A DNA stretch of 64,000 nucleotides from contig JANWWQ010000001.1 of assembly GCA_025055635.1 (NCBI GenBank), positions 61,768-125,767 on the forward strand. Direction: 5' to 3'. This stretch comes from Flavobacteriales bacterium (GTDB lineage: Bacteria; Bacteroidota; Bacteroidia; CAIKAF01). The position numbers were made by a program, and so were the translations under genes. The notes under the pieces are model-generated. The model worked only from the letters and a program-made list of their open reading frames with translations. It did not search any database and was not told where the DNA came from. This document shows, in pieces, positions 6,401 through 42,462 of the stretch (its first letter is position 1; each line of letters starts with the position of its first letter).

Positions 6401-6425
6401 ATAATGAACAGGTCACAAATGGCTT

Positions 6426-6457: not shown

Positions 6458-6479
6458 TCAGCCCAATGGGTGCGGGGCC

Positions 6480-6866
6480 TTACTTAATTTCAACCTCTGC
6501 GCCGGCTTCCTCCAACTGTTTTTTAATGGATTCGGCTTCCTCTTTGGAAACCCCTTCCTTTACAGTTTTCGGAGCGTTGTCCACCAATTCTTTGGCCTCT
6601 TTAAGTCCCAGGCCGGTGATTTCTTTAATGAGTTTCACCACGCCCAGCTTAGCCTGGCCTCCGAATTTGAGTATCACATCAAAGGTGGACTTTTCGGGAG
6701 CCCCTCCACCTTCGCCGCCGGCTCCCCCAGCTGCCGGAGCAGCTACGGCTACGGCGGCAGCGGCGGGTTCAATACCATACTCAGACTTAAGGATGTTGGC
6801 CAGTTCCTGTACCTCTTTCACGGTGAGGCCTACCAGTTGTTCTGCGAGAGCTTTTACGTCTGCCAT
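6480..6866 (-). CDS. rplL: 50S ribosomal protein L7/L12
   Basis: [34 protein letters not shown], an Ala/Gly-rich hinge, and a C-terminal ...[41 protein letters not shown]. Confidence 0.95.
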
Positions 6867-6910
6867 AGTTGTGGGTATTTGATTTGTGTGGTTGAACTAT
6901 AAAGGGTTAA

Positions 6911-7438
6911 TTAAGATTTTTTTTCCTCCAAGCTTTTTAGCAATGCAGCAATTTTCTGAGGTCCCTGGAATTGAAGAGCGGAAAGCACATTACGGAGGGG
7001 GCTTTGCAGAAGACCTATAACCTCTCCAATGAGTTCTTCACGGGACTTCAGTTTTTCCAGTATATCCAGGTTATGTTCACCCAGATACACCGATTCAGAA
7101 ATATAGGCACTTTTGAGTACGAAATGGGGCGTTACTTTTTTAAATTCCTTAATCAGCCGGGCTGGTGCATTAGCTGTTTCTGAAACAAGAATGGCAGTGG
7201 TGGCTCCTTTGAGGGTGTCGTACATCCCGTCAAAGTTTTTGCCACTTTTCTCCATGGCCTTTTTCAGCAAGGTCTTTTTAACCACGCGCATGCGCACTTG
7301 GCGCTCAAAACACAATTTGCGCAACTTCACCGCATATTGAGCTGTCATTCCGGTCGAATCGGCCAGATAAATATTATTGTGAGTATTAAGCAATTCCGTC
7401 AATTCGTCAATGATGACTTTTTTTTCCTCCTTTTTCAC
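6911..7438 (-). CDS. rplJ: 50S ribosomal protein L10
   Basis: 175 aa, placed between rplA and rplL. The composition is L10-like. Confidence 0.85.
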   Translation of the reverse strand: MKKEEKKVIIDELTELLNTHNNIYLADSTGMTAQYAVKLRKLCFERQVRMRVVKKTLLKKAMEKSGKNFDGMYDTLKGATTAILVSETANAPARLIKEFKKVTPHFVLKSAYISESVYLGEHNLDILEKLKSREELIGEVIGLLQSPLRNVLSALQFQGPQKIAALLKSLEEKKS

Positions 7439-7450
7439 GGCTTTAACAGA

Positions 7451-8146
7451 TTAGACGTTTAACGAGTTCACATCCAGCGGAATGCCAGGACTCATGGTGC
7501 TTGAAAGAGTGACACTGCGCAGATAGGTTCCCTTGGCAGAGCTTGGTTTAAGCTTCACAACGGTACCTAAGAATTCCCTGGCATTCTCTACTATTTTATC
7601 TTTTTCAAATGAAATGCGCCCTATGGAAGAGTGGATTATCCCGGCCTTATCTACCTTAAAATCCACTTTTCCACCTTTGGTATCTTCTACGGCCTTGGCT
7701 ACGTCTGTGGTGACAGTGCCTGTTTTAGGATTAGGCATAAGCCCGCGGGGGCCGAGGATGCGCCCTAAAGCTCCTACTTTACCCATGACATTGGGCGTGC
7801 AGATAATTACATCCACATCCGTCCAACCCTGTTTAATTTTTTCAATATATTCATCAAGACCCACATAGTCTGCGCCCGCTTTCCGGGCTTCTTCCTCCTT
7901 ATCGGGGGTACATAATACCAGGACACGAACCGTTTTGCCTACTCCATGCGGAAGCTTCACGGAGCCTCTGACCATTTGGTCTGACTTGCGTGGATCTACG
8001 CCCAACCTGACGCTTAAGTCCACCGACTCGTCAAACCGAGCATAACTGATTTTTTTCAACAGTTCTACGGCTTCCGGAAGAGTGTAAAGCTTTTTGGGCT
8101 GAATTTGCTCCAGGGCTTTTTTCCTTTTTTTACTAATTCTAGGCAT
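7451..8146 (-). CDS. rplA: 50S ribosomal protein L1
   Basis: 231 aa; ...[35 protein letters not shown] is the L1 signature. Confidence 0.93.
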
Positions 8147-8172
8147 TATCCTTCAGGATTTTTTATTCACCA

Positions 8173-8610
8173 TTAAAAGGGAGGCTGACCTTCAATGACT
8201 ACGCCCATGCTTCGGGCCGTGCCAGCAATCATTTTCATGGCCGATTCCAGCTTGTAACAGTTGAGGTCGGGCATTTTTTCTTCGGCGATCTTACGTACCT
8301 GATCCCAGGTGATGGTGCCCACTTTTTTCCGATTTGGCTCCGAAGAGCCTGATTGGATTTTAGCCGCTTCCTTAATGAGCACCGAAGCCGGCGGGGTTTT
8401 CACCACGAAGTCAAAGGACTTGTCGGCATAAACTGTTATGACAACCGGGCAAATTTTGCCTGCTTTGTCTTGGGTTCTGGCGTTGAACTGTTTGCAGAAT
8501 TCCATGATGTTCACCCCCTTGGCTCCGAGGGCCGGCCCCACAGGGGGAGAGGGGTTGGCAGCTCCTCCCTTGATTTGCAATTTGATTATTGCAGCCACTT
8601 CTTTAGCCAT
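8173..8610 (-). CDS. rplK: 50S ribosomal protein L11
   Basis: 145 aa; [43 protein letters not shown] is the L11 N-terminal signature. Confidence 0.95.
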
Positions 8611-8616
8611 AGGTCA

Positions 8617-9168
8617 TCAAATTTCTTTTGATACTTGCATAAAGCTAAGTTCCAGCGGGGTTTTGCGTCCAAAAATTTTCACGCTCACCTTAAGTTTCTT
8701 TTTTTCTTCATTGATCTCTTCAATGACGGCTGTTAGATTGTTAAATGGCCCGTCGATAACCTTTACGGTTTCTCCTACGTAAAAGGGAATCACCATTTCT
8801 TCCTTTCCCATCAGTTCTTCGTCCACTTTACCGAGAATCCTGTTAAGCTCTTGGGGCCGCATCGGAAGAGGGGGGCCGCCCTTTTCAGCCCCCAGGAAAT
8901 TGAGTACACCCGGAGTGTTCTTAATCACATGGGGCAATTCCCCGGACAGATCAGCTTCAATAAGAATGTAACCCGGATAAATGGGCTTCTCTTTGCTGAT
9001 CTTTTTACCTTCTCTGAGTTGCACCACTTTTTCGGTAGGCACAAACACTTGACCCACCTGGTTTTCAAGGTGGTTGCGCCGGATTTCCAGCAGGATCTGA
9101 TCGCGCACTTTTTTTTCCTGACCGCTAATGGCTCTTACCACATACCACTTTTTTTGAGCCGTTTCCAT
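8617..9168 (-). CDS. nusG: Transcription termination/antitermination factor NusG
   Basis: 183 aa; a [18 protein letters not shown] domain and a C-terminal KOW ([21 protein letters not shown]). It sits at the expected secE-nusG-rplK position. Confidence 0.92.
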
Positions 9169-9192
9169 TCCCAGAGCCAGTTAGAATAAATT

Positions 9193-9387
9193 TTAGAATA
9201 AATTGTTGTAAATTAATTCCATAATATTTTTAAAGGCCGAGTCCATCAGAAAAATGATGATGGCTATCAGTAAAGAAGCCACCAGCACAATGATGGCGCT
9301 GTTCTGAAGCTCCTTGTATGGCGGCCACGACACCTTATGCATCAGCTCGTTGTAGCTTTCGCTGATGTAGGTTCTTATTTGTTTCAT
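9193..9387 (-). CDS. secE: Preprotein translocase subunit SecE
   Basis: 64 aa with a single C-terminal TM helix, located between tRNA-Trp and nusG as in the conserved operon. Confidence 0.85.
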   Translation of the reverse strand: MKQIRTYISESYNELMHKVSWPPYKELQNSAIIVLVASLLIAIIIFLMDSAFKNIMELIYNNLF

Positions 9388-9416
9388 TTCCCCTTTTAAC
9401 CCTATATTCTAATATG

Positions 9417-9487
9417 CACGGGCGGAGAGATTCGAACTCCCATCAACGGTTTTGGAGACCGCTATTCTACCCTTGAACTACGCCCGT
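9417..9487 (-). tRNA. tRNA-Trp (anticodon CCA)
   Basis: The reverse complement reads ...GGTCTCCAAAACC... (a CCA anticodon in a 7-nt loop) with a T-arm GGGAGTTCGAATCTCTC. The ACGGGCG/CGCCCGT acceptor stem pairs. It sits at the canonical position between tuf and secE. Confidence 0.85.
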
Positions 9488-9509
9488 AGCCTTTTATCTA
9501 AAATTCTAT

Positions 9510-10697
9510 CTACTTAATGATTTCGGTTACTTGCCCGGCTCCCACGGTGCGACCGCCTTCCCGGATGGCGAAGCGCAGGCCTTTATCCATGGCTACCGGA
9601 GCAATTAATTTGACATTAATGGTGACATTATCGCCTGGCATCACCATCTCGCGACCTTCTGGTAATTGGATTTCACCGGTCACATCAGTGGTACGGAAGT
9701 AAAACTGGGGACGGTACTTATTGTGAAAAGGTGTGTGGCGACCACCTTCTTCCTTTTTCAGAATATACACTTCGGCTTTGAACTCTGTGTGAGGGGTGAT
9801 GGTACCAGGCTTGGCGATCACCATGCCCCGCCGAATGTCCTTTTTATCAATGCCGCGCAGCAGCAGGCCAACGTTGTCTCCAGCTTCCCCCTTATCCAGA
9901 ACTTTGCGGAACATTTCAACCCCCGTAACCGTGCTTTTCAGTTTTTCTTCCTGCATACCTACGATTTCTACTTCATCGCCTACCGCTACGACACCCGTTT
10001 CAATCCTTCCCGTAGCTACTGTACCACGGCCCGTAATGGAAAATACGTCTTCCACAGGCATGAGGAAAGGCTTATCAATGTCGCGCGGGGGAACCGGAAT
10101 ATAATTATCCACAGCATCCATTAATTCCAAAATTTTAGCTTCCCATTTGGGATCGCCATTGAGCGCACCAAGGGCAGAGCCACGAATTATGGGAGTGTTT
10201 TCGCCATCATATTCATAAAAAGTAAGCAGGTCGCGAATGTCCATCTCCACCAGATCCAGAATTTCTGGATCGTCTACCATGTCCACCTTGTTCATGAACA
10301 CTACGATTTTGGGTACACCTACCTGGCGGGCCAGCAGAATGTGTTCGCGGGTTTGGGGCATGGGCCCGTCGGTGGCCGCCACTACCAGGATAGCGCCATC
10401 CATCTGGGCTGCACCTGTCACCATGTTTTTCACGTAGTCGGCATGGCCAGGGCAGTCCACGTGGGCGTAATGCCTCTTTTCAGTTTCATACTCCACGTGG
10501 GAAGTGTTAATTGTGATACCACGTTCTCTTTCCTCCGGAGCATTGTCAATAGAGTCAAAAGAACGTTCCTGGGCCAGACCTTTTTTGGCCAACACCTTTG
10601 TTATGGCCGCAGTCAGGGTGGTTTTACCGTGGTCCACGTGGCCAATGGTCCCCACATTAACATGGGGCTTCGTACGTTCAAACTTCTCTTTTGCCAT
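9510..10697 (-). CDS. tuf: Elongation factor Tu
   Basis: 395 aa; [33 protein letters not shown] with [17 protein letters not shown] and NKVD GTPase motifs. Confidence 0.98.
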
Positions 10698-10743
10698 GGT
10701 GTAATGTGTGTTTAATGGTAGTTATACAGGTTGTTGTTTTCAG

Positions 10744-10815
<72 letters not shown>

Positions 10816-10856
10816 TAAACAAAAACAAGGACAGGAAAGCCCGCTGTGACCTTGTG

Positions 10857-10929
<73 letters not shown>

Positions 10930-10964
10930 TGGGCTGCCTGTTAAAGGTTTGTATCCCGAAGCGG

Positions 10965-11050
10965 TGGTGGGGAGAACAGGATTCGAACCTGTGAAGGCAT
11001 ACGCCACTTGATTTACAGTCAAGCCCATTTGACCGCTTTGGTATCTCCCC
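10965..11050 (-). tRNA. tRNA-Tyr (anticodon GTA), long variable arm, CCA encoded
   Basis: The reverse complement is GGGGAGATACCAAAGCGGTCAAATGGGCTTGACTGTAAATCAAGTGGCGTATGCCTTCACAGGTTCGAATCCTGTTCTCCCCACCA with anticodon loop ACTGTAAAT. Confidence 0.88.
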
Positions 11051-11067
11051 GCTTTTCAAAGAACAGG

Positions 11068-11140
11068 AGCCGACGAAGGGACTCGAACCCCCGACCTGCT
11101 GATTACAAGTCAGCTGCTCTACCAGCTGAGCTACATCGGC
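11068..11140 (-). tRNA. tRNA-Thr (anticodon TGT)
   Basis: The reverse complement is GCCGATGTAGCTCAGCTGGTAGAGCAGCTGACTTGTAATCAGCAGGTCGGGGGTTCGAGTCCCTTCGTCGGCT with anticodon loop ACTTGTAAT. Confidence 0.88.
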
Positions 11141-11298
11141 CATAACGTTTCTCAACCCTCCTTAAAAACGGGGTGCAAATGTACAAAAAATTTCAATTCC
11201 AACTTTATTAACCAGGAATTTTTGAAACTTTTTGTTTTAAGGAACATACAAATATAAAATGCCTAATTTAAATTAGATGGCGTTAATATTTTGTTATT

Positions 11299-11862
11299 GT
11301 GTTAAGCAGATATAAACTTACCTCCAAGGGCAAAGTAACTTTGCGGCCGCCTGTTGTGAGCATTTCCCTGGTATTTTCTCTTTATTTGGTGGCCTGCAGC
11401 ACAGCCGAAAAGGCCATAAAAGCAAAAGCTAAGACAGAGTCAGCCGATTTGCGCTATTATTCCGAAAGGCTGGGAGTGGATTTAGACCATCGATCTAACC
11501 TTAAGTTGGCGGCCGCAGTAGTGGACTGGCTGGGCGTACCCCATCACCAAGGGGGCCAGTCAAAAAAGGGTACCGACTGCAGCGGGTTTGCCAACTACAT
11601 TTACCGCACTGTCTATGGTGTTGAAATCCCTCGCTCATCCTCTGAGATATATGAGAGGTGCCAGCCCAAACGTAAGGAACAACTGCAAGAAGGGGATTTC
11701 GTTTTCTTTAAGGTGGGTTCTCGCCACATAAATCATGTGGGCATATATTTGAAAGACGGAAAGTTTGCCCATGCCAGCACCAGCCGGGGTGTCATCGTGA
11801 GCAGTCTGGACGAACCTTATTGGCAGAAATACTGGTTTTCAGGTGGGCGTCTAAGGAATTAA
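11299..11862 (+). CDS. NlpC/P60 (C40) family peptidoglycan endopeptidase, lipoprotein
   Basis: Carries ...HQGGQSKKGTDCSGFANYIYRTVYGV... with the catalytic Cys of the NlpC/P60 family, and a downstream ...HINHVGIYL... with the His. A lipobox-like LVAC sits near the N-terminus. The ORF begins with GTG at 11299, but the true start could be an internal TTG or GTG (11341 or 11356). Confidence 0.8.
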   Translation: MLSRYKLTSKGKVTLRPPVVSISLVFSLYLVACSTAEKAIKAKAKTESADLRYYSERLGVDLDHRSNLKLAAAVVDWLGVPHHQGGQSKKGTDCSGFANYIYRTVYGVEIPRSSSEIYERCQPKRKEQLQEGDFVFFKVGSRHINHVGIYLKDGKFAHASTSRGVIVSSLDEPYWQKYWFSGGRLRN

Positions 11863-13031
11863 TGTTCAGGTTTGTAGTATATTTTTTCAGCATCTTCTTG
11901 GGGGTAAGTTGGAGCCTTGATACATGTCGCGGCCAAGAGGAGGTGCTTCGCCAATGGCAGAGGATGTTCATAGAGGCCGAGGATGGAGATACCATCACTT
12001 TACCGGCCGGACGTTTTCACTTCCCCCGTAGTCTTTCACTAGACGGCAAGCACGGCGTGGTGATCCGAGGAGCAGGGCCCTACGCCACGATCCTTTCATT
12101 CAAGGGTCAGAAAGACGGAGCAGAAGGTATTAAAATTAATCATTGCTCCCAAATGGAACTGCGCGATTTTACAGTAGAAGATGCCCGTGGGGACGGCATT
12201 AAAGCTTCTTTTTGTAGAGAGATAACGTTCCGTAACGTCATAACACGCTGGAGGGGCAGGCCCTCCAAAAAGAACGGCGCCTATGGATTGTATCCGGTCT
12301 CCTGCGACGGGGTTCTCATTGAAGGCTGTATGGCAGAGGGTGCCAGCGATGCCGGCATCTATGTGGGCCAGAGCCGACGGGTTGTGGTACGGTATTGTGT
12401 GGCCCGCCATAATGTGGCCGGCATCGAAATAGAAAATTGTGTGGATGCCGAAGTGGTGGGTTGTCTGGTCACTGAAAACAGCGGAGGAATTTTGGTTTTT
12501 GATTTGCCCGAATTGCCTGTGAAAGAAGGAAGCCACATTAAGGTCCATCACAACCACATAGTGGCCAACAATTTCCGCAATTTTGCCCCCCGCGGTAACA
12601 TAGTCGGCCAAGTGCCTCCGGGTACTGGTGTGATGGTACTATCGGGCCGAAGGGTAACCGTAGAGTACAATCTGGTGGCGGAAAATAAGACGGCCTCCTG
12701 TGCCATTGTTAGCTTTCACATTTCAGGAAGACCCTACAAAGACACTTTATACAACCCATATCCAAGAGAAGTGTTTGTGGCTCATAATATCTTCCGACGA
12801 AGGCTCAGAATGCCTGCTGTCAATTACCAGCTGGGATTGTTAGCTTTTTTGAAGTTTGGCCGCAGGACGCCGCACATATTATACGATGGTATCTGGCCGC
12901 CGGATATCCCAGGGCCGAATCCTTTTCAAATATGCATTGGGCCTAATGAGAACGGTACCTTTGTAAGGTTAGATGCCGGAAATCGGTTCAGGGGGCTAAC
13001 CCGAGATGTGACGCCTTACCTCTGTCCTTAA
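11862..13031 (+). CDS. Right-handed parallel beta-helix (pectin-lyase-fold) repeat protein, secreted; possible polysaccharide lyase/glycosidase
   Basis: Repeated PbH1-like turns appear (ARGDGIKA..., NVAGIEIENCVDAEVVGCLVTENSGGILVF, HIKVHHNHIVANN). The ATG at 11862 overlaps the stop of the upstream gene (TAATG) and gives the signal-like MFRFVVYFFSIFLGVSWS. The longer ORF from 11820 is probably not used. Confidence 0.7.
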   Translation: MFRFVVYFFSIFLGVSWSLDTCRGQEEVLRQWQRMFIEAEDGDTITLPAGRFHFPRSLSLDGKHGVVIRGAGPYATILSFKGQKDGAEGIKINHCSQMELRDFTVEDARGDGIKASFCREITFRNVITRWRGRPSKKNGAYGLYPVSCDGVLIEGCMAEGASDAGIYVGQSRRVVVRYCVARHNVAGIEIENCVDAEVVGCLVTENSGGILVFDLPELPVKEGSHIKVHHNHIVANNFRNFAPRGNIVGQVPPGTGVMVLSGRRVTVEYNLVAENKTASCAIVSFHISGRPYKDTLYNPYPREVFVAHNIFRRRLRMPAVNYQLGLLAFLKFGRRTPHILYDGIWPPDIPGPNPFQICIGPNENGTFVRLDAGNRFRGLTRDVTPYLCP

Positions 13032-13473
13032 ATACCTGGGCATTTGTTAGCTTTCATAATAGCTTTCTTTAAAGAGCCCATAATTTAAATTAAATATTGA
13101 GATTTTATTTTTGTATGGCTTTTAAGATGATTTAAAAAATGTAAACTTTATTCCAAATTATTCCACAGGAGGGTTTTGTACTTTATTATCTTATTTAAAC
13201 CCTCATTAAGTGGTGAGGATGACAATGATATGACAAAAGAGCGTGGTATCCCAATGGAAGAGATTTTTTCAGTACCCCTCTTAATGTTCTCATCATTCCT
13301 TGAATTTAACATATTTTGCATTTTTTAAAGGTCGTTATCATGTTGATAAAGTTTTGTATCTTTCGGAATGTAGGTGCAGCCTTTGAGGAATTACGTGAAT
13401 CTTAATATGATGGCAATATCAAAAACGGCTATATTTTCCATAAAATCGTATTCTTAAAATCATACTTTCTCTT

Positions 13474-16400
13474 ATGAAAAGTAGAGGTATGAAAAAATTT
13501 TTTATCACCCTATCAATTATAGGATCGGCGTCAGCCGTAAGGCAGGGGGCATGGTCGCAGCTCACCTTGACTACACAGACCGCCAACCAGTATGTCGCCA
13601 ACCTGGTGGGTAACGGGATTACCTACTCCAACGTGGTGTTCAATGGTGATCCAGCGGCTATCCGTGCTTTTTCCAACGGGAATACCACCAACCTGGGGCT
13701 CACGAGCGGGGTTGTGATGAGTACGGGCCTCTTGAATGGTACAGGGACCCAAAGCTTATCAGGTCCCTCTTCAAACTTTCTCAGCGGTAACAATGGCGGA
13801 GGCAGTTACCCCGAATTGAATGCTATAGCCGGATCGGCTACCTACGATGGATTGGTGTTGGAATTTGACTTTGTTCCGGTTACAAACCAGCTCAATGTGG
13901 AGTTTGTGTTTGGTTCGGAGGAATATAATGAATATGTGAATTCTGGCTTTAATGATGCCTTCGCATTTTTCATTAGTGGACCCGGGATAGTAGGTCAACA
14001 AAACATTGCTTTGGTGCCCAATACTTCTCTTCCCGTAACTATTGATAACATTAACAATGGAAACTGGTGGTGGTGTTCGTTCGGCCCTTGCTTCAATTGT
14101 GCATATTATATTGATAATTGTAATGGGACCACCTTAGCCATGGATGGGTTTACGACTGTGCTGACTGCCAGTCGAACAGTAATTCCTTGTTCTACTTATC
14201 ACATTCGTCTCATGATTGCTGATGGAGGAGATGCCGCCTATGATTCATGGGTATTCTTAAAGCAGGATGGTTTTTATTCAGTAGGAGCCACAGGTGCCAG
14301 TGTCACAACTACCACGCTAATTCCAGGGGGTACGGCGTTTGAAGGCTGTGGCAATAATGTGAATTATTTCACCTTCAGTATCCCCGCCCCTGTTTCTACC
14401 AATACAACAATTAACTTTACGATAGGAGGCACGGCCACCAATGGCCTAGATTATCAGGCCATTCCCAACTCTATCACCATACCGGCAGGTCAGACCTCTG
14501 CTAATTTGTTTATTAATGCCATCAACGACGGGATAGTAGAGCCCAACGAAACGGTAATTCTCACAGTACCTTTAAATGCCTGTTCTACACAAACTTACAC
14601 CCTTACTATTGCTGATCCGGTACCTTTGAATGTGAATGTGCCCCCTAACGTTAGTTATTGTGCTGGGGGGCCGCCTGTATCCATCACAGCCACTCCTTCT
14701 GGAGGACTGGGTAATATCTCCTACTCGTGGAGTAACGGGGCGGGCACAGGGCAAACTATTAGCGTCAATCCTGGATCTACCACCACCTATACCGTAACGG
14801 CCACGGATGCCTGTGGTACCACAGCCACCGCCCAAACCACAGTGGCCGTAGTGCCGGCCCCAAGTTCTGCTTTCAGTATGCCTTCCACAGGATGTGTGGG
14901 GCAACCTGTAACCATTACCTATACAGGCAACGCCCCGCCAGGAGCCACATATAATTGGAACTTTGGGGCAGCCACTGTCCAGAGCGGCAGCGGGCAGGGC
15001 CCTTACACGGTAACATTTCCTAACACGGGCTCTTTTAATGTGAGTCTCACCGTTATCCATAACGGCTGTACGTCGGCCACTACTACGCAAAACATACAGA
15101 TCAGCAACGCATTTACTTCAACGTTTTCGGCACCAGCCAATATCTGTGCAGGTCAGACGGCTACCATTACCTATACAGGCAATGCGCCTGCCAACGCCAC
15201 TTACAACTGGAATTTCGGTGGAGGTACGGTGCTTTCCGGTTCAGGACAAGGTCCCTATCAGGTACAGTTCAATACTCCAGGAACTCCCACCATTACCTTG
15301 AGTGTCGCCAGTGGCAGCTGCACATCGTCCACCACATCTGTACCCATCACAGTCAATCAAATTCCCACCTCCACCTTTACCGTCACCTCCCCAGTGTGTG
15401 TGGGTCAGAATGCCACTGTCACCTACACGGGTAATGGTGGCAACGCCTCTGTATACAACTGGAATTTTGCGGGGGGCAATGCGGTGCCAGGATGGGGTAT
15501 GGGTCCTCATCAGGTCAGCTGGAATGCACCAGGCACGTACACCATAACGCTTACCACTAACCTAAATGGTTGCATTTCGCCTCCCACTTCCGTTAATGTG
15601 GATGTAATTTCTGCACCAACAAGCACTTTTTCCATCAGTCCTAATCCACCCTGTGCGGGCCAGAATGTCACTGTAACCTACACAGGGAATGCATCTGCAG
15701 GTGCTACATATTCCTGGAATTTTGGGGGAGGGGTAATTGTCAGTGGCAGCGGACAGGGTCCTTATGTAATTAACTTTCCGAGTGCCCAGAATTACAATAT
15801 CTCACTTCAAGTAAATCAGGGAGGCTGTATATCCACTACCACAACGCAAACCGTGGCTGTGACACAACCTCCAACCAGCTCATTTACCACATCCAGCCCT
15901 ATATGTTTTGGTCAGAATCTCACGGTCAATTATACAGGCAATGCACCCCCTGGAGCTACCTATAACTGGAACTTTGGGGGTGCTACGGTGGTTTCGGGAA
16001 ATGGGCCGGGGCCCTATAACTTAAGCTTTCCCAGCCCAGGTAGTTATACCCTTTCCCTCCAAGTAAATAATAATGGTTGTCAGTCTAATACCACTACGCA
16101 GAATGTGGTGGTGAATCCGGGTCCTTCGGCCTCCTTCACTGTGAATCCTGGCACTCTTTGTGAAGGTCAGGCGGCTACGGTTACTTATACGGGAAATGCT
16201 GGAGCTGGGGCCACATACACCTGGAATTTTGGTGGGGGTACAGTGCAGAGTGGTTCTGGTGCGGGTCCCTACCAAGTGAGTTGGGCAACGGGGGGCAATT
16301 ACACGGTTTCCCTGACGGTCACACAGAACGGATGCACGTCCACGCCAGCGACTCAGGCGGTGACGGTTAATGCTATTCCTACGGCTTCTTTTAGCCTCAA

Positions 16401-19400
16401 TCCTGCTACGGTGTGTGCGGGACAGCCTGTCACCATTACCTACACGGGCAGTGCGGGTGCTGGGGCGGTGTATAACTGGGATTTTGGTGGGGGTACGGTG
16501 CAGAGTGGTTCTGGTGCGGGGCCCTATCAGGTGAGTTGGACAGCTGGGGGTAGTTTTTCGGTTAGCCTTTCCGTAACGGCTAACGGTTGTACATCACCGC
16601 CTAACAATCAAAATGTTACGATAAACTCCATTCCTACTTCTTCATTTACTGCCACTTCAGGAATTTGCCCTGGGCAAAACAGCCTCATTACCTATACAGG
16701 AACAGCTGGTCCGGGAGCAACGTACAATTGGAGCTTTAGCGGGGGCACCGTAGCTTCTGGTTCAGGTCCTGGCCCCTACCAGGTAAATTGGCTCGCGCCT
16801 GGTACCTATACTATATCACTAACTGTCATAGAAAACGGCTGTACCTCTTCCTCCACCACCCAACAAGTGGTGGTTTCCAATCTTCCCTCAGCCGCTTTTT
16901 CTATCAATCCCAACCCTGTATGTGTTAATCAGCCTGTTACAATAACCTATACTGGTGGCGCCAATAATGCCACTTTTAGCTGGAATTTCGGAGGTGGAAT
17001 CGTTCAAAGTGGGTCGGGGGGTGGCCCCTACACTGTCATTTATAATACGGCCAACACCTTCACGGTTTCCCTTCAGGTCAATGTAGGGGGGTGTCTTTCC
17101 CCTCCGCAAACCCAGACCATCACCGTAAATCCGATCCCCACCTCTAGTTTTTCTATGCCGGTGATCGCCTGTGCTCAAAATCCTGTGACCATTACCTATA
17201 CCGGCAATGCGGGAGCTGGAGCTACCTACAATTGGAGTTTTGATATGGGGACAGTGGTAAGCGGTTCGGGTCAAGGCCCTTACCAGGTGGAATGGTCTCA
17301 AGTTGGGGTGTACATCGTTTCCTTGCAAGTGATTGAGAACGGTTGTGTGTCTGCCACTACGGCCCTATCTATTGGTATAAATCCGACGCCGGTGGCCTCC
17401 TTCTCAGTAAATCCTTCCCCAGCCTGTGTGGGGCAGCCTGTCACTATTACTTATACCGGAAACAGCCCACCCAATGTGAGCTACACATATAACTTTCCTG
17501 GAGGTAATATTATCTCCGGCATTGGACAGGGACCTTTTCAAGTGATTTGGCCCAACGCCGGCACGTACAACCTCACGCTGATGGTGATTGCATCCGGGTG
17601 CACTTCCCAGGTGTTCAATTATCCTCTTACAGTTAATAACCCTCCCACTTCGTCTTTCACGGTGAACCCGAATGCAGTTTGCGCCGGACAATCCGTTACT
17701 ATCACCTACTCTGGTAATGCGGGTGCAAACGCTTCATTTAACTGGGATTTTGGAGGAGGGACCATCATTTCTGGAAGTGGTACAGGTCCCTACCAGGTGC
17801 AGTGGCCCTCGGCAGGCGCTCCCAATATAACGCTTACCGTCACGGAGAATGGCTGTACATCTACCCCCACTTCTTTGCCTGTTACGGTTTATCCCATTCC
17901 TTCGGCTTCTTTTACGGCAAGTTCCCCCTTGTGTCCTGGCCAACTAGGTACTATTAGCTATACGGGAACAGCCTCACCCGTTGCCACATATGCCTGGAAT
18001 TTTGGTGGTGGTACAGTGGTTTCAGGGACGGGTCAAGGGCCTTATCAGGTGCATTGGAACTCACCAGGCAACTATTCCGTATCCTTGACAGTAACAGAAA
18101 ATGGTTGTATATCTCCTCCTTACACCCAGAATGTCGTGGTCCACAGTACACCCCTTTCCACTTTTTCTGTGCCTAATGCTGCGTGTGAAGACCAGCCCGT
18201 GACCATTACCTACACCGGCACTTCGTCGCCAGGAGCCATATATTCTTGGAACTTTGGAGGGGGTACAATCCTTTCAGGAAGTGGTCAGGGCCCCTATCAG
18301 GTCAGCTGGTCTAATCCTGGTACAGCAACGATTTCTCTCACTGTCATTGAAAATGGTTGCCAATCGCTACCCACATCTCAAAGCCTTCTCATCCATCCTA
18401 TACCTTCCGCAACTTTCACTTCTGCGACTCCTGTATGTGCGGGGGCTAATTCTATAGTAACCTATACTGGCACTGCGAGCGGAAATGCCCTGTATCAATG
18501 GGATTTTGGAAATGCCACACTCATCAGTGGAAGCGGACAAGGGCCATATCAAATCAGTTGGAATAACCCGGGGCAATACACGGTTTCACTTGTAGTAACA
18601 GAGAATGGTTGTACCTCTCCCAGTTATTCTCAGGCTATTACTGTCAACCCCATTCCAACGGCCTCATTTTCCCTGCCTTCTTCTCTCTGCGAAGGGCAAC
18701 CCGGGAATATATCCTATAACGGAACTGGGGGTGCAGGGGCTACCTTCCAGTGGAACTTTGGAGGGGGAAATGTGGTATCTGGCAGTGGAGCAGGACCTTA
18801 TCAAGTGAGTTGGAATGCCGCAGGCACATATAATATCTCTCTTACAGTGACTGAAAATGGCTGCCAATCCAATCAGGTCACTCAATCTCTCACTGTCTAT
18901 CCGATTCCCACAGCCAACTTTTCCGTTGGAGGACCCGTCTGTCCGGGGGATGGAATCTCTGTCACCTATACCGGTACCGCAACTGCAGGAGCTATATACG
19001 ATTGGAATTTTGGTGGAGGCAGCATTCAAAGCGGATCGGGACAGGGACCCTTTCAAATACTATATCCTGCCCCGGGTCAATATAATATCAGCCTAACGGT
19101 GTCAGAAAATGGATGTGTATCCCCTGTCTTTTCTCAGGTGGCCACTGTTTTACCGAGTCCTTCAGCTCTTTTCACCGCCACCCCTGCGGTGTGCGAGGGC
19201 CAGGCGGCTACTATTAATTACACCGGTGGAGCGGGAGCGGGGGCTACCTTCATCTGGAATTTTGATAATGGGACCATTCTTGCGGGAAGTGGTCCCGGAC
19301 CTTATCAGGTGTCATGGAATACTCCCGGAACGCATCAGATTTCCCTTACGGTGGTGGAAAATAACTGCTCTTCTCCCCAGGAAGTTCAACATGTTGTAGT

Positions 19401-21699
19401 ACACGCTATCCCCACAGCCGATTTCACAGTGATGAGTCCTGTGTGTGAGGATCAGGGGACTATCCTCACCTACACAGGCTCCGCAAGTGCTGCCGCTACA
19501 TACGTTTGGTTCGCGGACGGCGGGCAGATAGTGGCCGGGTCCGGTTCTGGCCCTATTACAATGGTTTGGAACACAGCGGGGACTTACAATCCCTCCCTCA
19601 CCGTCACGGAGAATGGATGCACGTCTCAGCCTTTCGTGGCAAACGTTACGGTTCAGCCTATCCCCACGTCTTCATTCACCCTTACCCCATCCGCGTGCGT
19701 TGGTCAGAATGCCGTAGCTACTTATACGGGCACGGCTTCACAGGCCGCCACATATTCCTGGACGATAACAGGAGGGGGACAAGTGCAGTCGGGAAGTGGA
19801 CCAGGCCCCATCGCCATTTCCTGGTCTAATGCTGGCAATTACAGTGTAGAACTGGTGGTACAGGATGGAGGGTGTGTCTCGCAGCCTACAATTCAAAACA
19901 TTACGGTGCACCCAATACCTACAGCTACATTCAATATCAATCCCGCTGCGATATGTTCAGGACAAGCTACCACCCTCACGTATACGGGCACTGCAGGCCC
20001 GGGGGCAACGTACTCTTGGAATTTTGGAGGAGGCACGGTGGTCAATGGCGGTGGAGCGGGGCCCTATCAAGTTCAATGGAATACACCGGGCAGTCACACG
20101 GTGACATTAACAGTCACGGAAAACGGCTGTACTTCCCAGCCTCAGTCCATAAATGTGACGGTGTATGATATTCCTACCTCTTCATTTACGGTTGCCAACG
20201 CCTGCCAAGGACAGGCTTCGGCCGTCACCTATACAGGAACAGCCTCCCCCGCCGCATCTTACCAGTGGAATTTTGGGACAGGTGTTGTACAATCAGGAAG
20301 CGGTGCCGGGCCCTATCAAATCCTTTGGAACGTGGCGGGCAATACGCAGGTCACTCTGGTTGTCACTGAGAATGGTTGCTCCTCAACGACCACTGTGGTA
20401 CCTGTGACCGTTTATCCGCTGCCAGTGGCTTCCTTCACATACAGCAACCCCTTGTGCGTTGGAAATACTACCAGTTTTTCCTTTACGGGTACCGCCGGTC
20501 CTACGGCCACCTATAACTGGAACTTTGGAAACGGGGTTGTGCAAAGCGGAACGGGAGCTGGACCTTATCAGGTGCTTTTCCCCAATGTGGGTTCGCAACA
20601 GATCAGCCTCATTGTCTCCGAGAATGGATGCACCTCAGCACCTTATAACCAGACCATAACCGTAAATCCGATACCTTCCGTTTCCATTGCACCGGTAAGC
20701 CCACAATGCGTGGGGATGAATAGTTTTGATTTTAGTGCCCAAGGAAATTGGGGTCCAGGAGCCACTTTCCAATGGTTCTTCCCCAACGGTAATCCTTCCT
20801 CATCCACCCAGCAAAATCCTCAGAATATTAGCTGGAATACACCGGGGATTTATGGCGTACAATTGATGGTGACAGAAAATGGGTGTTCAGGCTCTGCTCA
20901 GGAAGAGGTGACCGTGTACGCTGACCCTGTCCCTCAGTTTACAGCTTCTCCGTTGTCTGGTTGTGAACCGCTGGATGTCCAGTTTAGCAATACCACCAAT
21001 GGCTACAGCCCAATGCAGGCAACCTGGAATTTGGGCAACGGTGTTAACGCCTCAGGCGATCAGGTATCTACCACGTACACACAGCCGGGCAGTTACACTG
21101 TTTCCTTGACGGTGACAGACGCCTATGGCTGTGTGGTGACTACTTCTATGCCCGGCCTTATTCAAGTTCATCCTAGGCCGGTTGCAGGTTTTGCGGTTTC
21201 GCCAATGGTGATGGACATCCAAGAACCGAACGTGGTCGTGACCGATCACTCCCAGTTTGCCACCCAATGGCATTACACATTTGGCGATGGAGCCCAATCG
21301 TGGCAGCAAAATCCTGCCCACAACTACCAAAATATAGGTGGCTACACAATTACGCAGGTAGTATACAATGCATTTGGTTGTTCTGACACGGCCAGTCTGA
21401 ATGTGGTGGTGAATCCGGTCAGTGAAATTTTTGTTCCTAATTCATTTTCGCCAAACGGAGATGGTGTCAATGATGTATGGCTGCCAATAGCTTCCTATGT
21501 TCGGCAAGTAGATATTTGGGTTTTTGATCGTTGGGGCCAAGTGGTATTCCACAGTGATGATGTCTACCACGGATGGGACGGAACCTACCGCAATTCAGGG
21601 GAGCCGATGAAGCAGGATACATACGTATATCTAATTGAATATAAAAACTATGCAGGAAAGCTGATGACTTTGCGGGGAAGCGTCACCTTGGTGAGATAA
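13474..21699 (+). CDS. Giant (2741-aa) cell-surface adhesin-like protein, probably a T9SS cargo. From N- to C-terminus: signal peptide, a domain resembling choice-of-anchor L, a Ca-binding/beta-sandwich region, an SprB-like repeat, about 24 tandem ~84-aa Ig/PKD-like modules, two canonical PKD domains, and a gliding-motility-associated (T9SS type B) C-terminal domain
   Basis: A single uninterrupted ORF. The N-terminus is MKSRGMKKFFITLSIIGSASA. The modules repeat with the pattern P.S.F...C.GQ..TITYTGNA..GATYNWNFGGGTV.SGSGQGPYQVSW...Y..SLTV.ENGC.S....Q.V.V. The C-terminus ...FVPNSFSPNGDGVNDVWLPI...YVYLIEYKNYAGKLMTLRGSVTLVR matches the CHU_C / TIGR04131-type C-terminal domain. PKD-like segments ...YTVSLTVTDAYGCVVTT... 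precede the C-terminal domain. Confidence 0.9.
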   Translation: MKSRGMKKFFITLSIIGSASAVRQGAWSQLTLTTQTANQYVANLVGNGITYSNVVFNGDPAAIRAFSNGNTTNLGLTSGVVMSTGLLNGTGTQSLSGPSSNFLSGNNGGGSYPELNAIAGSATYDGLVLEFDFVPVTNQLNVEFVFGSEEYNEYVNSGFNDAFAFFISGPGIVGQQNIALVPNTSLPVTIDNINNGNWWWCSFGPCFNCAYYIDNCNGTTLAMDGFTTVLTASRTVIPCSTYHIRLMIADGGDAAYDSWVFLKQDGFYSVGATGASVTTTTLIPGGTAFEGCGNNVNYFTFSIPAPVSTNTTINFTIGGTATNGLDYQAIPNSITIPAGQTSANLFINAINDGIVEPNETVILTVPLNACSTQTYTLTIADPVPLNVNVPPNVSYCAGGPPVSITATPSGGLGNISYSWSNGAGTGQTISVNPGSTTTYTVTATDACGTTATAQTTVAVVPAPSSAFSMPSTGCVGQPVTITYTGNAPPGATYNWNFGAATVQSGSGQGPYTVTFPNTGSFNVSLTVIHNGCTSATTTQNIQISNAFTSTFSAPANICAGQTATITYTGNAPANATYNWNFGGGTVLSGSGQGPYQVQFNTPGTPTITLSVASGSCTSSTTSVPITVNQIPTSTFTVTSPVCVGQNATVTYTGNGGNASVYNWNFAGGNAVPGWGMGPHQVSWNAPGTYTITLTTNLNGCISPPTSVNVDVISAPTSTFSISPNPPCAGQNVTVTYTGNASAGATYSWNFGGGVIVSGSGQGPYVINFPSAQNYNISLQVNQGGCISTTTTQTVAVTQPPTSSFTTSSPICFGQNLTVNYTGNAPPGATYNWNFGGATVVSGNGPGPYNLSFPSPGSYTLSLQVNNNGCQSNTTTQNVVVNPGPSASFTVNPGTLCEGQAATVTYTGNAGAGATYTWNFGGGTVQSGSGAGPYQVSWATGGNYTVSLTVTQNGCTSTPATQAVTVNAIPTASFSLNPATVCAGQPVTITYTGSAGAGAVYNWDFGGGTVQSGSGAGPYQVSWTAGGSFSVSLSVTANGCTSPPNNQNVTINSIPTSSFTATSGICPGQNSLITYTGTAGPGATYNWSFSGGTVASGSGPGPYQVNWLAPGTYTISLTVIENGCTSSSTTQQVVVSNLPSAAFSINPNPVCVNQPVTITYTGGANNATFSWNFGGGIVQSGSGGGPYTVIYNTANTFTVSLQVNVGGCLSPPQTQTITVNPIPTSSFSMPVIACAQNPVTITYTGNAGAGATYNWSFDMGTVVSGSGQGPYQVEWSQVGVYIVSLQVIENGCVSATTALSIGINPTPVASFSVNPSPACVGQPVTITYTGNSPPNVSYTYNFPGGNIISGIGQGPFQVIWPNAGTYNLTLMVIASGCTSQVFNYPLTVNNPPTSSFTVNPNAVCAGQSVTITYSGNAGANASFNWDFGGGTIISGSGTGPYQVQWPSAGAPNITLTVTENGCTSTPTSLPVTVYPIPSASFTASSPLCPGQLGTISYTGTASPVATYAWNFGGGTVVSGTGQGPYQVHWNSPGNYSVSLTVTENGCISPPYTQNVVVHSTPLSTFSVPNAACEDQPVTITYTGTSSPGAIYSWNFGGGTILSGSGQGPYQVSWSNPGTATISLTVIENGCQSLPTSQSLLIHPIPSATFTSATPVCAGANSIVTYTGTASGNALYQWDFGNATLISGSGQGPYQISWNNPGQYTVSLVVTENGCTSPSYSQAITVNPIPTASFSLPSSLCEGQPGNISYNGTGGAGATFQWNFGGGNVVSGSGAGPYQVSWNAAGTYNISLTVTENGCQSNQVTQSLTVYPIPTANFSVGGPVCPGDGISVTYTGTATAGAIYDWNFGGGSIQSGSGQGPFQILYPAPGQYNISLTVSENGCVSPVFSQVATVLPSPSALFTATPAVCEGQAATINYTGGAGAGATFIWNFDNGTILAGSGPGPYQVSWNTPGTHQISLTVVENNCSSPQEVQHVVVHAIPTADFTVMSPVCEDQGTILTYTGSASAAATYVWFADGGQIVAGSGSGPITMVWNTAGTYNPSLTVTENGCTSQPFVANVTVQPIPTSSFTLTPSACVGQNAVATYTGTASQAATYSWTITGGGQVQSGSGPGPIAISWSNAGNYSVELVVQDGGCVSQPTIQNITVHPIPTATFNINPAAICSGQATTLTYTGTAGPGATYSWNFGGGTVVNGGGAGPYQVQWNTPGSHTVTLTVTENGCTSQPQSINVTVYDIPTSSFTVANACQGQASAVTYTGTASPAASYQWNFGTGVVQSGSGAGPYQILWNVAGNTQVTLVVTENGCSSTTTVVPVTVYPLPVASFTYSNPLCVGNTTSFSFTGTAGPTATYNWNFGNGVVQSGTGAGPYQVLFPNVGSQQISLIVSENGCTSAPYNQTITVNPIPSVSIAPVSPQCVGMNSFDFSAQGNWGPGATFQWFFPNGNPSSSTQQNPQNISWNTPGIYGVQLMVTENGCSGSAQEEVTVYADPVPQFTASPLSGCEPLDVQFSNTTNGYSPMQATWNLGNGVNASGDQVSTTYTQPGSYTVSLTVTDAYGCVVTTSMPGLIQVHPRPVAGFAVSPMVMDIQEPNVVVTDHSQFATQWHYTFGDGAQSWQQNPAHNYQNIGGYTITQVVYNAFGCSDTASLNVVVNPVSEIFVPNSFSPNGDGVNDVWLPIASYVRQVDIWVFDRWGQVVFHSDDVYHGWDGTYRNSGEPMKQDTYVYLIEYKNYAGKLMTLRGSVTLVR
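14851..20925 (+). repeat. In-frame tandem array of about 24 copies of a ~252-bp (84-codon) coding module inside the giant adhesin gene
   Basis: The protein-level periodicity (TYTG..A.Y.WNFGGG...SGSG.GPYQV.W...NGC.S) is counted by eye, and the nucleotide periodicity is visible. The repeats are diverged (roughly 50-70% aa identity), so they are not assembly duplicates of a single unit. Confidence 0.85.
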
Positions 21700-21736: not shown

Positions 21737-22486
21737 TTGCGGGGGCGGATGGGGTCTATCCATGTCCTGTATGGGCAAATTGAAAAAGTTGATATTCTAG
21801 CCTTTGGCGCCCATCCCGACGATGTGGAGTTGGGATGCGGAGGACTTTTGGCTCAGGAAATAAGAAAAGGGCGCCGTGCCGCTATTTGCGATCTTACGGC
21901 CGGCGAAGCTGGAACGCGCGGCTCGCCAGAAATCCGACGGGAAGAATCCCGTCTGGCTGCACGCATTTTGGGCCTTTCCTGCAGAATCCAGTTAAACTTT
22001 AAGGATGGCTTCCTTCTTTATAAGGAAGACTACTTAAAGGAGCTGATCGAAGTCATTCGACTTTTCCGTCCCAGAATCGTTTTGGCAAATGCTGTGCAAG
22101 ATCGGCACCCCGACCATGGCCATGCCGCCAAGCTGGTGCGCGATGCGGCCTTCTTGGCGGGGCTTCCGAAAATCGCTACTCAAAGTCCGGCCCACAGACC
22201 TCAGCTGGTGTGGCATTACATTCAGTTTTACGAATTTTCTCCTCAAGTGTATTATAGCTTGGAGCCAGCTTCTTGGGAGGTGAAAATGCAGGCTGTCCGG
22301 GCCCATTCCTCCCAGTTTTACAATCCGGAGTCCCCGGAGCCACAGACGCTTATCTCCCGCCCAGAATTTTTAGAGTTCATTGAAGCGCGCGGTCGTCAAT
22401 ATGGACTCAGGTGCGATAGTGTTTATGCTGAAGGTTTTCTGGTGGAACGGGCTCCTGCGGTTTGGGCCTTGGAGAATGTGAAGTAA
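21737..22486 (+). CDS. bshB1: Bacillithiol biosynthesis deacetylase BshB1 (LmbE/PIG-L family N-acetylglucosaminyl-malate deacetylase)
   Basis: ...VDILAFGAHPDDVELGCGGLLAQEIRKGRRAAICDLTAGEAGTRGS...EESRLAARILG...NAVQDRHPDHGHAAKLV...GVLYAEGF aligns closely with B. subtilis BshB1 (ILAFGAHADDVEIGMAG...CDLT...DRHPDH). Confidence 0.8.
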   Translation: MRGRMGSIHVLYGQIEKVDILAFGAHPDDVELGCGGLLAQEIRKGRRAAICDLTAGEAGTRGSPEIRREESRLAARILGLSCRIQLNFKDGFLLYKEDYLKELIEVIRLFRPRIVLANAVQDRHPDHGHAAKLVRDAAFLAGLPKIATQSPAHRPQLVWHYIQFYEFSPQVYYSLEPASWEVKMQAVRAHSSQFYNPESPEPQTLISRPEFLEFIEARGRQYGLRCDSVYAEGFLVERAPAVWALENVK

Positions 22487-22495
22487 AAACTTAAT

Positions 22496-23314
22496 ATGAT
22501 CAACGATCCATCTTTAAAAAAAGTAGCCCTAATTACGGGTGCTGGTTCTGGAATTGGAAGAGCATTAGCCATCCAAATGTCCCGAAAGGGATATCGGCTG
22601 GCCATATGTGCCCGTACAAAAGAGGCAGTGTTGGAAACAAAACATCTTTGCGCCATTCCGGATGAAGTACTGCCCCTACAGGCCGATGTGACGCGCCGCA
22701 AGGATTGTGAAGCCTTTGTAACCCAAGCCTTCAATGCCTTTGGTCGGATAGATGTTTTAGTTAACAACGCCGGCATCAGCATGCGGGCTCTTTTTGCACA
22801 TGCTTCCCTGGAAGTCTTGGAAAAAGTGATGAACACCAACTTCTGGGGTACGGTGTATTGCACCCATTACGCTCTTCCCCATATATTAAAAACTGGTGGC
22901 TCTGTAGTAGGCATTTCCAGCATTGCTGGGTTCAAGGGGCTACCAGCCAGAACGGGATATTCTGCCTCCAAATTCGCAATGGACGGCTTCCTGGAAGCCC
23001 TGCGGATTGAGAACCTTTATACAGGCCTCCATGTACTTATCGTGCATCCAGGGTTCACTGCGAGCAACATCCGCAACACCGCCCTGGCTGCAGACGGTAC
23101 TCCTCAGGGGGAAAGCCCGCGCAACGAAAGCTCCATGATGTCGGCTGAGGAATGTGCTCGTCATATTCTTAAAGCCATTGAAAAAAGAAAAATTATCTTA
23201 ACTCTCACTACTGAAGGGCAACTTCTGCGATGGGTGAATTTCCTATGGCCTAAAATGGCGGACAAATTGGTATACGCAACCCTCAAAAAGGAAAAAGACA
23301 GCCCTCTGCCATGA
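22496..23314 (+). CDS. Short-chain dehydrogenase/reductase (classical SDR)
   Basis: Carries an ITGAGSGIGRALA Rossmann motif, NNAG, and the catalytic YSASKFA (YxxxK). It starts 9 nt after bshB1. Confidence 0.88.
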   Translation: MINDPSLKKVALITGAGSGIGRALAIQMSRKGYRLAICARTKEAVLETKHLCAIPDEVLPLQADVTRRKDCEAFVTQAFNAFGRIDVLVNNAGISMRALFAHASLEVLEKVMNTNFWGTVYCTHYALPHILKTGGSVVGISSIAGFKGLPARTGYSASKFAMDGFLEALRIENLYTGLHVLIVHPGFTASNIRNTALAADGTPQGESPRNESSMMSAEECARHILKAIEKRKIILTLTTEGQLLRWVNFLWPKMADKLVYATLKKEKDSPLP

Positions 23315-23877
23315 AGGCCCCGTCCGTCCAGATAGAGCGTCTGCGGTACTACTATCGAAAATTTATCCTTCTTTGGATACCCGTACGAGTTTATGTGTTA
23401 CACACCCCCCTTTCTCCCGATGAAATCGTTCTCAAACTTTCGCAAGTAATATTTCCCTTTAGATGGTATTTTTTGTTTTCTCCAGCAACGCAGCTTCCCT
23501 ACAGCGGACGTTTTGAGGGCGATGGATTTGTGGCCATTAAAAATGCTTATAATAAATATATTAGAAGTATAAAAGTTATAGGTAAATTTTACATAGTGAA
23601 TAATAAAATTTATGTGCGGCTTATTTTCTCCAATCCCTTCTCAATCATTAATATAGGTATTGTTTTATTTTTTTATGTATTCCTTTATTTACTAAGAATA
23701 CCTTTCTTTCCCTCAGTCCTTGCAAATGTCCTGGTATACTCTGTTCCTTTAATTTTGGCATATCTTGCTACTAATCTATCATTCCAGAAAATTTATAAAA
23801 AAGAAAAGATGTTTTTTTTTAGGCTTTTTGAAGGGCGGCGTTTAAAAGAAGATGAAATAAGTATCTTAGGTATTTAA
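23311..23877 (+). CDS. Hypothetical membrane protein (188 aa); AT-rich C-terminal two-thirds with 2-3 predicted TM helices
   Basis: The start codon overlaps the SDR stop (ATGA). The C-terminal half is hydrophobic (IINIGIVLFFYVFLYLL...VLVYSVPLILAYLA). I recognise no family. Confidence 0.5.
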   Translation: MKAPSVQIERLRYYYRKFILLWIPVRVYVLHTPLSPDEIVLKLSQVIFPFRWYFLFSPATQLPYSGRFEGDGFVAIKNAYNKYIRSIKVIGKFYIVNNKIYVRLIFSNPFSIINIGIVLFFYVFLYLLRIPFFPSVLANVLVYSVPLILAYLATNLSFQKIYKKEKMFFFRLFEGRRLKEDEISILGI

Positions 23878-42373: not shown

Positions 42374-42462
42374 CGGGTTGACAGGTGCAAAGCTACATTC
42401 CACAGTCCAGTGCCATTGAGGTTTTATTAATTAACGTTGCTCATGGTTGCACATTATTTTCT

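Follow-up and report, generated by a model that had tools for sequence, protein, structure and literature searches.

We analysed a stretch of 64,000 nucleotides from a Flavobacteriales bacterium (NCBI GenBank assembly GCA_025055635.1, contig JANWWQ010000001.1, positions 61,768 to 125,767 of the forward strand), referred to below as the window. A single open reading frame (ORF) of 8.2 kb at positions 13474..21699 of its plus strand encodes a giant protein whose stalk contains an array of 24 tandem PKD-type modules. The ORF is complete (2,741 aa plus the stop codon), in agreement with an earlier description of this DNA made from the letters alone, hereafter the sequence-only reading. [quoted passage not shown] This interpretation is based on the combination of a repeat stalk, a distal head and a C-terminal CHU_C anchor, which together appear as a longer-stalk version of the design of its family. 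The adhesin is of note as an outlier in stalk length within that family, for the evolution of its repeats relative to an orthologue, and for its near lack of lysine and arginine.

The array spans residues 462-2483 (14857..20922, plus strand) and is 2,022 aa long. Modules were delimited with a regular expression anchored on the first conserved cysteine and were then aligned with MAFFT, yielding an alignment of 24 rows (A1). The sequence-only reading had counted about 24 tandem copies of about 84 aa; we found exactly 24, with a period of 83-86 aa. All but one of the modules are canonical (23/24), the last module (M24) being more diverged. Five positions are invariant across the 24 modules (Cys13, Gly24, Pro49, Leu64, and Cys71), and the consensus, xPTASFT...C.GQ..TITYTG.A..GATY.WNFGGGTV.SGSG.GPYQV.W...G.Y..SLTV.ENGC.S, contains both the conserved cysteine pair and the motif, running from TITYTG.A to SGSG.GPYQV.W, that the sequence-only reading had described for each module. 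Because the modules share a mean pairwise protein identity of 49% and the whole adhesin scores 429 bits against the PKD_4 profile and 406 bits against the PKD profile, the repeats go far beyond what chance would produce. The array is followed, as had been proposed, by two canonical PKD domains at residues 2484-2649 (20923..21420, plus strand), which match PKD_4 in two stretches with 86.4 bits together.

It had also been suggested that the 84-aa module is not a PKD repeat and might constitute a distinct family of immunoglobulin-like (Ig-like) domains. Our profile searches refute this view. When the modules were scanned singly, 23 of the 24 matched PF18911 (PKD_4) and 22 matched PF00801 (PKD) at E<=1e-3, and smaller numbers matched Ig_7, which is associated with CHU_C (10 modules), and PKD_6 (five modules). 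The PKD alignments usually span about positions 4-84 of the 85 profile positions; a full-length match to an existing Pfam repeat, which had been named beforehand as the outcome that would speak against a separate family, is therefore what was observed. Single modules score 20-35 bits against the PKD profiles, which lies around the gathering scores, and eight of the ten modules examined individually reached these scores, with M19 and M23 slightly under. Using hhalign, the module profile matched the adhesin's own canonical PKD domain with a probability of 94.9% (E 4e-8), and both cysteine positions were found to align. The same profile matches crystal structures of PKD domains from two collagenases, ColH and ColG, with E-values of 9e-9 and weaker. 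These collagenase domains share the fold of the adhesin modules and the signature W-x-F-G-D/G-G ... G-x-Y-x-V-x-L, but the adhesin modules differ by an additional invariant cysteine pair, by the SGSGxGP insertion, and by their 24-copy array. Indeed, the PKD signature WxFGDG...GxYxVxL is present in the modules as WNFGGG...GxYxxSLTV. The module is a putatively Cys-stapled subtype of the PKD clan, which presents WNFGGG in place of WDFGDG, an invariant cysteine pair, and a three-residue SGSGxGP insertion.

We modelled modules 6-7 as a pair with AlphaFold2 (AF2) using the adhesin's other di-modules as the alignment. The model (predicted local distance difference test score, pLDDT, of 97.2; predicted template modelling score, pTM, of 0.82) presents two beta-sandwiches in series with 7-8 strands each. 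Its best matches among solved tandem structures were segments of the GhpA stem (template modelling score on the query, TMq, up to 0.64), followed by generic Ig, PKD, Big, and cadherin rods. The Cys13-Cys71 pair is most parsimoniously predicted to form an intradomain disulfide, since this scheme leaves one unpaired cysteine after the head, whereas an interdomain scheme would leave three.

A word-indexed protein search with the module profile returned two fragments only, and an exhaustive HMMER search was needed. Across 1.84 billion representative proteins, the latter identified 44,549 proteins at a threshold of E<=1e-3, of which 3,432 also reach E<=1e-30. Many of these proteins bear arrays of 10-79 copies. 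This PKD subtype is extremely widespread: tens of thousands of surface proteins of Bacteroidota build their stalks from what looked like an exotic 84-aa repeat. Because the module is such a common subtype, no new repeat family is needed.

The other domains were identified by matches to hidden Markov models (HMMs) along the protein, and the overall architecture from the N- to the C-terminus agrees with the sequence-only reading. The choice-of-anchor-L domain, previously recognized as a resemblance, covers residues 40-267 (13591..14274, plus strand) and matches NF038133 with 234.5 bits (cut-off 27) over positions 3-219 of 219. We presume that this domain is the distal binding head. Its predicted fold is a jelly-roll-like beta-sandwich (pLDDT mostly >90 in the AF2 model), and its structural neighbours are generic lectin/MAM-type sandwiches only. 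The head is followed by a Calx-beta domain at about residues 276-380 (14299..14613, plus strand; HMM match) with the motif NDGIVEPNETV and by an SprB-repeat-containing Ig-like domain at residues 383-461 (14620..14856, plus strand) with Cys396 and Cys447. The SprB-like repeat reported ahead of the array holds, although marginally: the SprB HMM detects one copy with 28.2 bits for a cut-off of 28. At the extreme C-terminus, the T9SS C-terminal domain (CTD) of type B, a sorting and anchoring domain, occupies residues 2650-2741 (21421..21696, plus strand). It matches TIGR04131 with 56.7 bits (cut-off 35; residues 2654-2741, profile positions 3-85 of 85) and the Pfam family CHU_C (PF13585) with 59.7 bits (cut-off 27), which bears out the type-B assignment made earlier. 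Five conserved CTD motifs, A-E, are needed for secretion (PMC12618676), and we took the full-length CTD match as a proxy for them.

At the N-terminus, hydropathy and charge indicate a Sec signal peptide at residues 1-28 (13474..13557, plus strand). In this heuristic test, the hydrophobic core is FFITLSIIGSASA and the n-region is rich in lysine and arginine; AF2 places a helix of low confidence at residues 9-20. Cleavage probably occurs at AWS|QL, leaving an N-terminal glutamine: this junction is conserved in relatives, and Q29 and L30 are almost invariant across 47 of them. The first ATG, at 13474 (MKSRGM...), is probably not the start codon. The true start is probably Met6 at 13489 (MKKFFITL...), which gives a product of 2,736 aa, because this is where NCBI places the start of the gene in L086 (a 99.8% identical locus, described below) and where the alignment with the orthologue P0123 begins. 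No record of the exact full-length adhesin sequence was found in the look-up.

We then compared the adhesin to proteins with a similar head. We found >2,156 head relatives, nearly all of them about 700-800 aa long and laid out as a head, 1-3 PKD domains, and CHU_C. The best 120 are all 342-805 aa long; their layout is a head, a Calx-beta domain, an SprB-like Ig domain, 1-3 PKD domains, and a CTD. The choice-of-anchor-L/CHU_C proteins (NF038133 and TIGR04131; P0001-P0120) have the same head at 40-57% identity and resemble the adhesin in their Calx-beta, SprB-like, and terminal PKD domains, in their type-B CTD, in the low Lys+Arg (K+R) content of their passenger, and in being lone genes amid housekeeping genes. 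In contrast, the adhesin of the window carries 24 extra PKD modules and is 3.5 times longer. The adhesin belongs to the choice-of-anchor-L/type-B-CTD family and its repeats belong to the PKD family. At the locus of P0009 (L082 8226-10385, L083 6449-8608), the choice-of-anchor-L/CHU_C gene of this short relative is directly followed by a second gene, for a 719-aa protein with PKD and CHU_C domains, so that some members of the family form tandem pairs of type-B cargos.

Other relatives share the stalk and not the head. P0128 (1,617 aa) lacks the choice-of-anchor-L domain and has another head, but it is 53% identical to residues 1297-2741 of the adhesin and shares with it a homologous stalk, the terminal PKD domains, and the CTD. 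Its unlike head, joined to a stalk and CTD that are homologous, is evidence that heads have been swapped over a conserved cassette, as is typical of modular adhesins, and gives an example of this process. P0124, P0125, and P0127 have a third head type in common.

How such a protein might work can be proposed from what is known of type-B cargos. Proteins with a type-B CTD stay bound, with the CTD intact, to barrels of the PorP/SprF family, as described for PG1035 with PorP and SprB with SprF (PMC9143113). In fibrillar adhesins, an adhesive-type domain lies distal to a stalk of Ig-like repeats, and CHU_C is accepted as an anchor domain (Monzon et al., PMC8286594). The protein of the window presents the same arrangement, its stalk and anchor consisting of 28 Ig-like domains and CHU_C, although its choice-of-anchor-L head, unlike experimentally validated adhesive domains, is a putative one. 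We propose that the signal peptide would take the adhesin into the periplasm and that an outer-membrane shuttle of the PorP/SprF family, encoded elsewhere, would recognize the type-B domain. The adhesin would then cross the SprA translocon and stay non-covalently on the cell surface through a complex of the CTD with a PorP-like protein. About 28 Ig-like domains would form the stalk (the Calx-beta domain, the SprB-like Ig domain, the 24 PKD modules, each probably disulfide-stapled, and the two canonical PKD domains). This stalk, whose length we estimate at about 100 nm from roughly 4 nm per Ig-like domain for 28 domains, would hold the choice-of-anchor-L head off the cell to bind a ligand, probably a glycan or a surface.

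Several observations weigh against this interpretation. We did not detect any PorP/SprF gene in the 64-kb window, either with a regular expression for the N-terminal signature or with NCBIfam and Pfam profiles on 16 candidate ORFs, nor any unambiguous T9SS core gene in the same window. That the host is competent for this type of secretion is suggested by phylum-level knowledge and by one weak type-A tail. PorP/SprF genes were likewise not found beside P0123, P0001, or P0009. Since such a gene is missing from the window and from these three loci, we take the adhesin to be an orphan type-B cargo, its shuttle presumably being encoded elsewhere in the genome. This would be analogous to Flavobacterium johnsoniae, in which a shuttle gene adjoins 9/12 type-B cargos and the other 3/12 are orphans with one common unlinked shuttle, Fjoh_1677 (PMC12618676); an adjacent shuttle gene is the usual arrangement but no requirement. 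The adhesin adds an orphan type-B cargo outside F. johnsoniae.

Alternatively, the protein could be secreted by the T9SS and then leave the cell for the medium, where it would bind or aggregate in soluble form. Release occurs for some T9SS cargos, the adhesin has no linked gene for a cognate PorP or PorE, and pairs of CTD and shuttle have been proposed to set the final destination of the cargo (PMC12618676). However, the type-B cargos that have been studied are known or predicted surface adhesins, PG1035 and SprB both keeping their CTD and staying bound, and a stalk of 100 nm makes functional sense mainly when one of its ends is anchored. We consider release unlikely.

A mobile gliding adhesin of the SprB type, moved by the gliding machinery along the surface of the cell, appears to be quite an improbable explanation. 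Like the adhesin, SprB of F. johnsoniae is a giant repetitive surface protein whose type-B CTD is of the same family; it is anchored through a PorP-family protein, and SprF alone suffices for this without PorE (PMC9143113). The adhesin has one SprB repeat, and its relatives are named "gliding motility-associated-like protein" by JGI. However, this label is the old name of the CTD model, and the single SprB repeat is the marginal one described above. SprB repeats make up the roughly 6,500 aa of SprB, whose gene lies beside sprF, whereas the adhesin has a stalk of PKD domains and no sprF, sprC, or sprD context in the window, where the downstream gene is BshB1. We therefore reject the adhesin as an orthologue of SprB on the basis of its single marginal SprB repeat, its PKD stalk, and the lack of an adjacent sprF.

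We judge it very unlikely that the protein forms a multimeric rigid grappling-hook filament similar to GhpA, in which parallel protomers held by hydrogen bonds and interdomain disulfides would catch prey or partner cells. GhpA of Aureispira sp. CCB-QB1 (PDB 9flp and related) is a substrate of the T9SS as well; its Ig-like domains contain cysteines and form a long array, with a functional module at the distal N-terminal end. Among solved tandem structures, GhpA is the one nearest to the adhesin modules (TMq 0.49-0.64, 21-28% identity), and it is the top PDB match of the module profile, with 117.9 bits summed over about 45 repeats. From Cys71 to the next Cys13 there are regularly 26 residues, a spacing that would permit bonds between domains. 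However, the sequence likeness per repeat is weak, as single GhpA repeats match at 18 bits or less. GhpA is much larger (5,898 aa, 52 repeats), heptameric, and glycosylated, and its hook of 1,400 aa contrasts with a choice-of-anchor-L head of 230 aa in the adhesin. Homologues of porP and porE, named ghpB and ghpC, lie directly downstream of GhpA, whereas BshB1 occupies this place both in the window and at the locus of the orthologue. In addition, most members of the family have 1-3 PKD domains and are too short to be hooks. The general O-glycosylation motif of Bacteroidota, D(S/T)(A/I/L/V/M/T), has one match in the whole adhesin (residue 2638), so that glycosylation of the kind seen in the GhpA stem is unlikely. 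The adhesin thus resembles GhpA and SprB as a giant T9SS type-B filament but fails the defining features of both.

The monomeric fibrillar adhesin that we favour presents 24 modules, and repeat arrays of this kind may be collapsed or expanded by assemblers, a risk that the sequence-only reading had raised. At the DNA level, the modules share a mean identity of 52.5%, and the longest exact word common to two of them is 23 nt. Tandem Repeats Finder (TRF) did not identify any tandem repeat across the array, because the DNA of the modules is too diverged. The most similar pair of the array is M6/M7 (16123..16629, plus strand; 69% identity). Locus L086, on contig JAOABJ010000010.1 of an independent NCBI assembly (GCA_026418395.1) from essentially the same organism, aligns with positions 3489-18417 of the window without gaps at 99.77% identity and has the same gene order, from rpoB through tuf, the NlpC/P60 gene, and the beta-helix gene to the adhesin. 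This contig agrees without gaps through module 13 and stops inside module 14. Its first ~14.5 kb are 99.94% identical to the window, and 25 of its 34 mismatches fall within the last 355 nt (locus 14574-14929, window 18062-18417). This tail, which has the appearance of heterogeneity between strains or of an assembly that broke within the array, is 93% identical to module 14, whereas no other module taken in that phase exceeds 61%. Because it is module 14 in place, it would represent strain variation at the end of a contig rather than a mis-join.

A full-length orthologue from metagenomes, P0123 (JGI 3300020567 and others; 3,073 aa), was found assembled identically on 10 contigs. It is 83% identical to the adhesin in the head and 71% in the tail and shares its downstream genes, but it has 28 modules instead of 24. 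The two arrays are collinear: modules 1-5 of the window (W1-5) correspond to modules 1-5 of P0123 (Q1-5) and W8-24 to Q12-28, so that the four extra modules are confined to the zone W6-7/Q6-11, where P0123 has six modules instead of two. Orthologous modules are 53-86% identical, which exceeds the paralogous mean of 49%. This collinearity, together with the greater similarity of orthologous modules, indicates that the array is old and that its modules are specific to their positions, apart from one zone (M6-M7) that is locally dynamic. The family offers a natural example of the evolution of stalk length, from relatives of about 780 aa to the adhesin of 2,741 aa and its orthologue of 3,073 aa with an indel in one zone. 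The copy number of 24 is credible. The break of L086 in module 14 and its clustered mismatches do indicate that the array troubles assemblers, and the hazard was real to this extent; nevertheless, the divergence of the modules, the agreement with L086, the collinearity of P0123, and a frame unbroken over 8.2 kb lead us to reject collapse or expansion, and it is most improbable that the count is an artefact of assembly.

The adhesin is also marked by its composition. The array contains no lysine and no arginine (with 10 His, 15 Asp, and 24 Glu), and the mature passenger presents five K/R among its 2,616 residues. The longest K/R-free run comprises 2,304 consecutive residues (264-2567; window 14263-21177). 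K+R amounts to 8.7% in the CTD and, for cytoplasmic proteins that the window encodes, to 10-15%. Of all single-nucleotide changes in the array, 10.4% would give rise to a codon for K or R. P0123 shows the same pattern, with five K/R among the 2,948 residues of its passenger and 2,685 consecutive residues free of both, and the desert has been kept even though the modules of the two proteins have diverged by 14-47%. Low K+R is a trait of the family, with a median of 1.2% across 119 relatives of the head. The fold does not impose this depletion, since K+R lies between 0.9% and 11% in other proteins built from the same type of module.

A K/R-free stalk may plausibly resist trypsin-like proteases and/or avoid sticking to anionic surfaces. 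We tentatively raise the possibility, which we regard as less probable than not, that the passenger is a selected Lys/Arg desert and that this represents an adaptive design rule for the exposed stalks of T9SS type-B adhesins. If true, the stalk would be immune to trypsin-like or gingipain-like proteases, including those secreted by the cell itself, and it would not stick electrostatically to anionic lipopolysaccharide or polymers, so that binding would occur through the head only. Such a rule might also predict which surface proteins are long-lived. Our literature search for Lys/Arg-free regions in connection with T9SS cargo or adhesins returned only papers on the "lysine desert" of the ubiquitin field. 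The conserved, near-absolute exclusion of lysine and arginine from a 2,600-residue passenger predicted to be exposed is the one feature of possible wider interest.

The genes surrounding the adhesin provide little indication of a dedicated locus. Upstream, the opposite strand carries a conserved cluster of rpoB, rplL, rplJ, rplA, rplK, nusG, secE, and tuf, preceded by tRNA-Thr, Gly, Tyr, and Thr. The 147-aa ORF at 10712-11155 (minus strand) is not a genuine gene: beneath it, upstream of tuf, lie the genes of four tRNAs (Thr-GGT, Gly-TCC, Tyr-GTA, and Thr-TGT), and these underlying tRNAs account for its apparent conservation in many rpoB-linked loci. Two genes on the same strand precede the adhesin at a distance of 443 nt, and the identities they had been given were confirmed: one encodes an NlpC/P60 protein (101.9 bits) and the other a parallel beta-helix protein (TIGR03805, 341.8 bits). 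These two genes had led to the suggestion of a locus for adhesion or polymer degradation. This proposal is unsupported, since the pair is missing at the locus of P0123, where the adhesin lies behind rpoA, rplQ, and carA, and since the surroundings are housekeeping genes. We also reject a functional operon of the NlpC/P60, beta-helix, and adhesin genes. A genome scan that used the adjacent beta-helix gene as the query did not identify any relatives. Short relatives of the head domain likewise stand alone amid housekeeping genes. Downstream, the run of BshB1 (PIG-L), an SDR gene, and a 188-aa ORF without any family match is kept in the window (21737-23877) and in L084, the locus of P0123 (19251-21376); these three genes have no evident link to adhesion. 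Scans for sigma-70 promoters and terminators, which do not cover Bacteroidota promoters, performed no better than on shuffled controls.

RpoB of the window is at most 76-77% identical to that of the sampled representative genomes, the closest of which are metagenome-assembled genomes of Bacteroidia and Flavobacteriales. On these identities the organism falls within Bacteroidota, with no reference close to it. A syntenic adhesin was found in none of the 80 RpoB-matched loci (0/80).

Finally, some additional ORFs of the window bear on secretion. The 569-aa ORF at 42664-44373 (plus strand) has a signal-peptide-like N-terminus, a K+R content of 5.8%, and a weak type-A tail: Por_Secre_tail matches residues 485-550 with 19.1 bits, under the gathering score of 27. 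This protein is possibly a second T9SS cargo. The ORF at 40733-42403 (minus strand) contains TPR repeats, a PD40 (TolB-like) propeller, and CarboxypepD_reg, without an OmpA domain. Its likeness to the OmpA-like PorE and CHU_0125 models is weak (148-156 bits, far under the cut-offs of 600-620). The ORF downstream of it (39969-40736) has no family match. At L084, by comparison, a PorE-like gene that is complete and includes the OmpA domain is located ~10 kb downstream of the orthologous adhesin.

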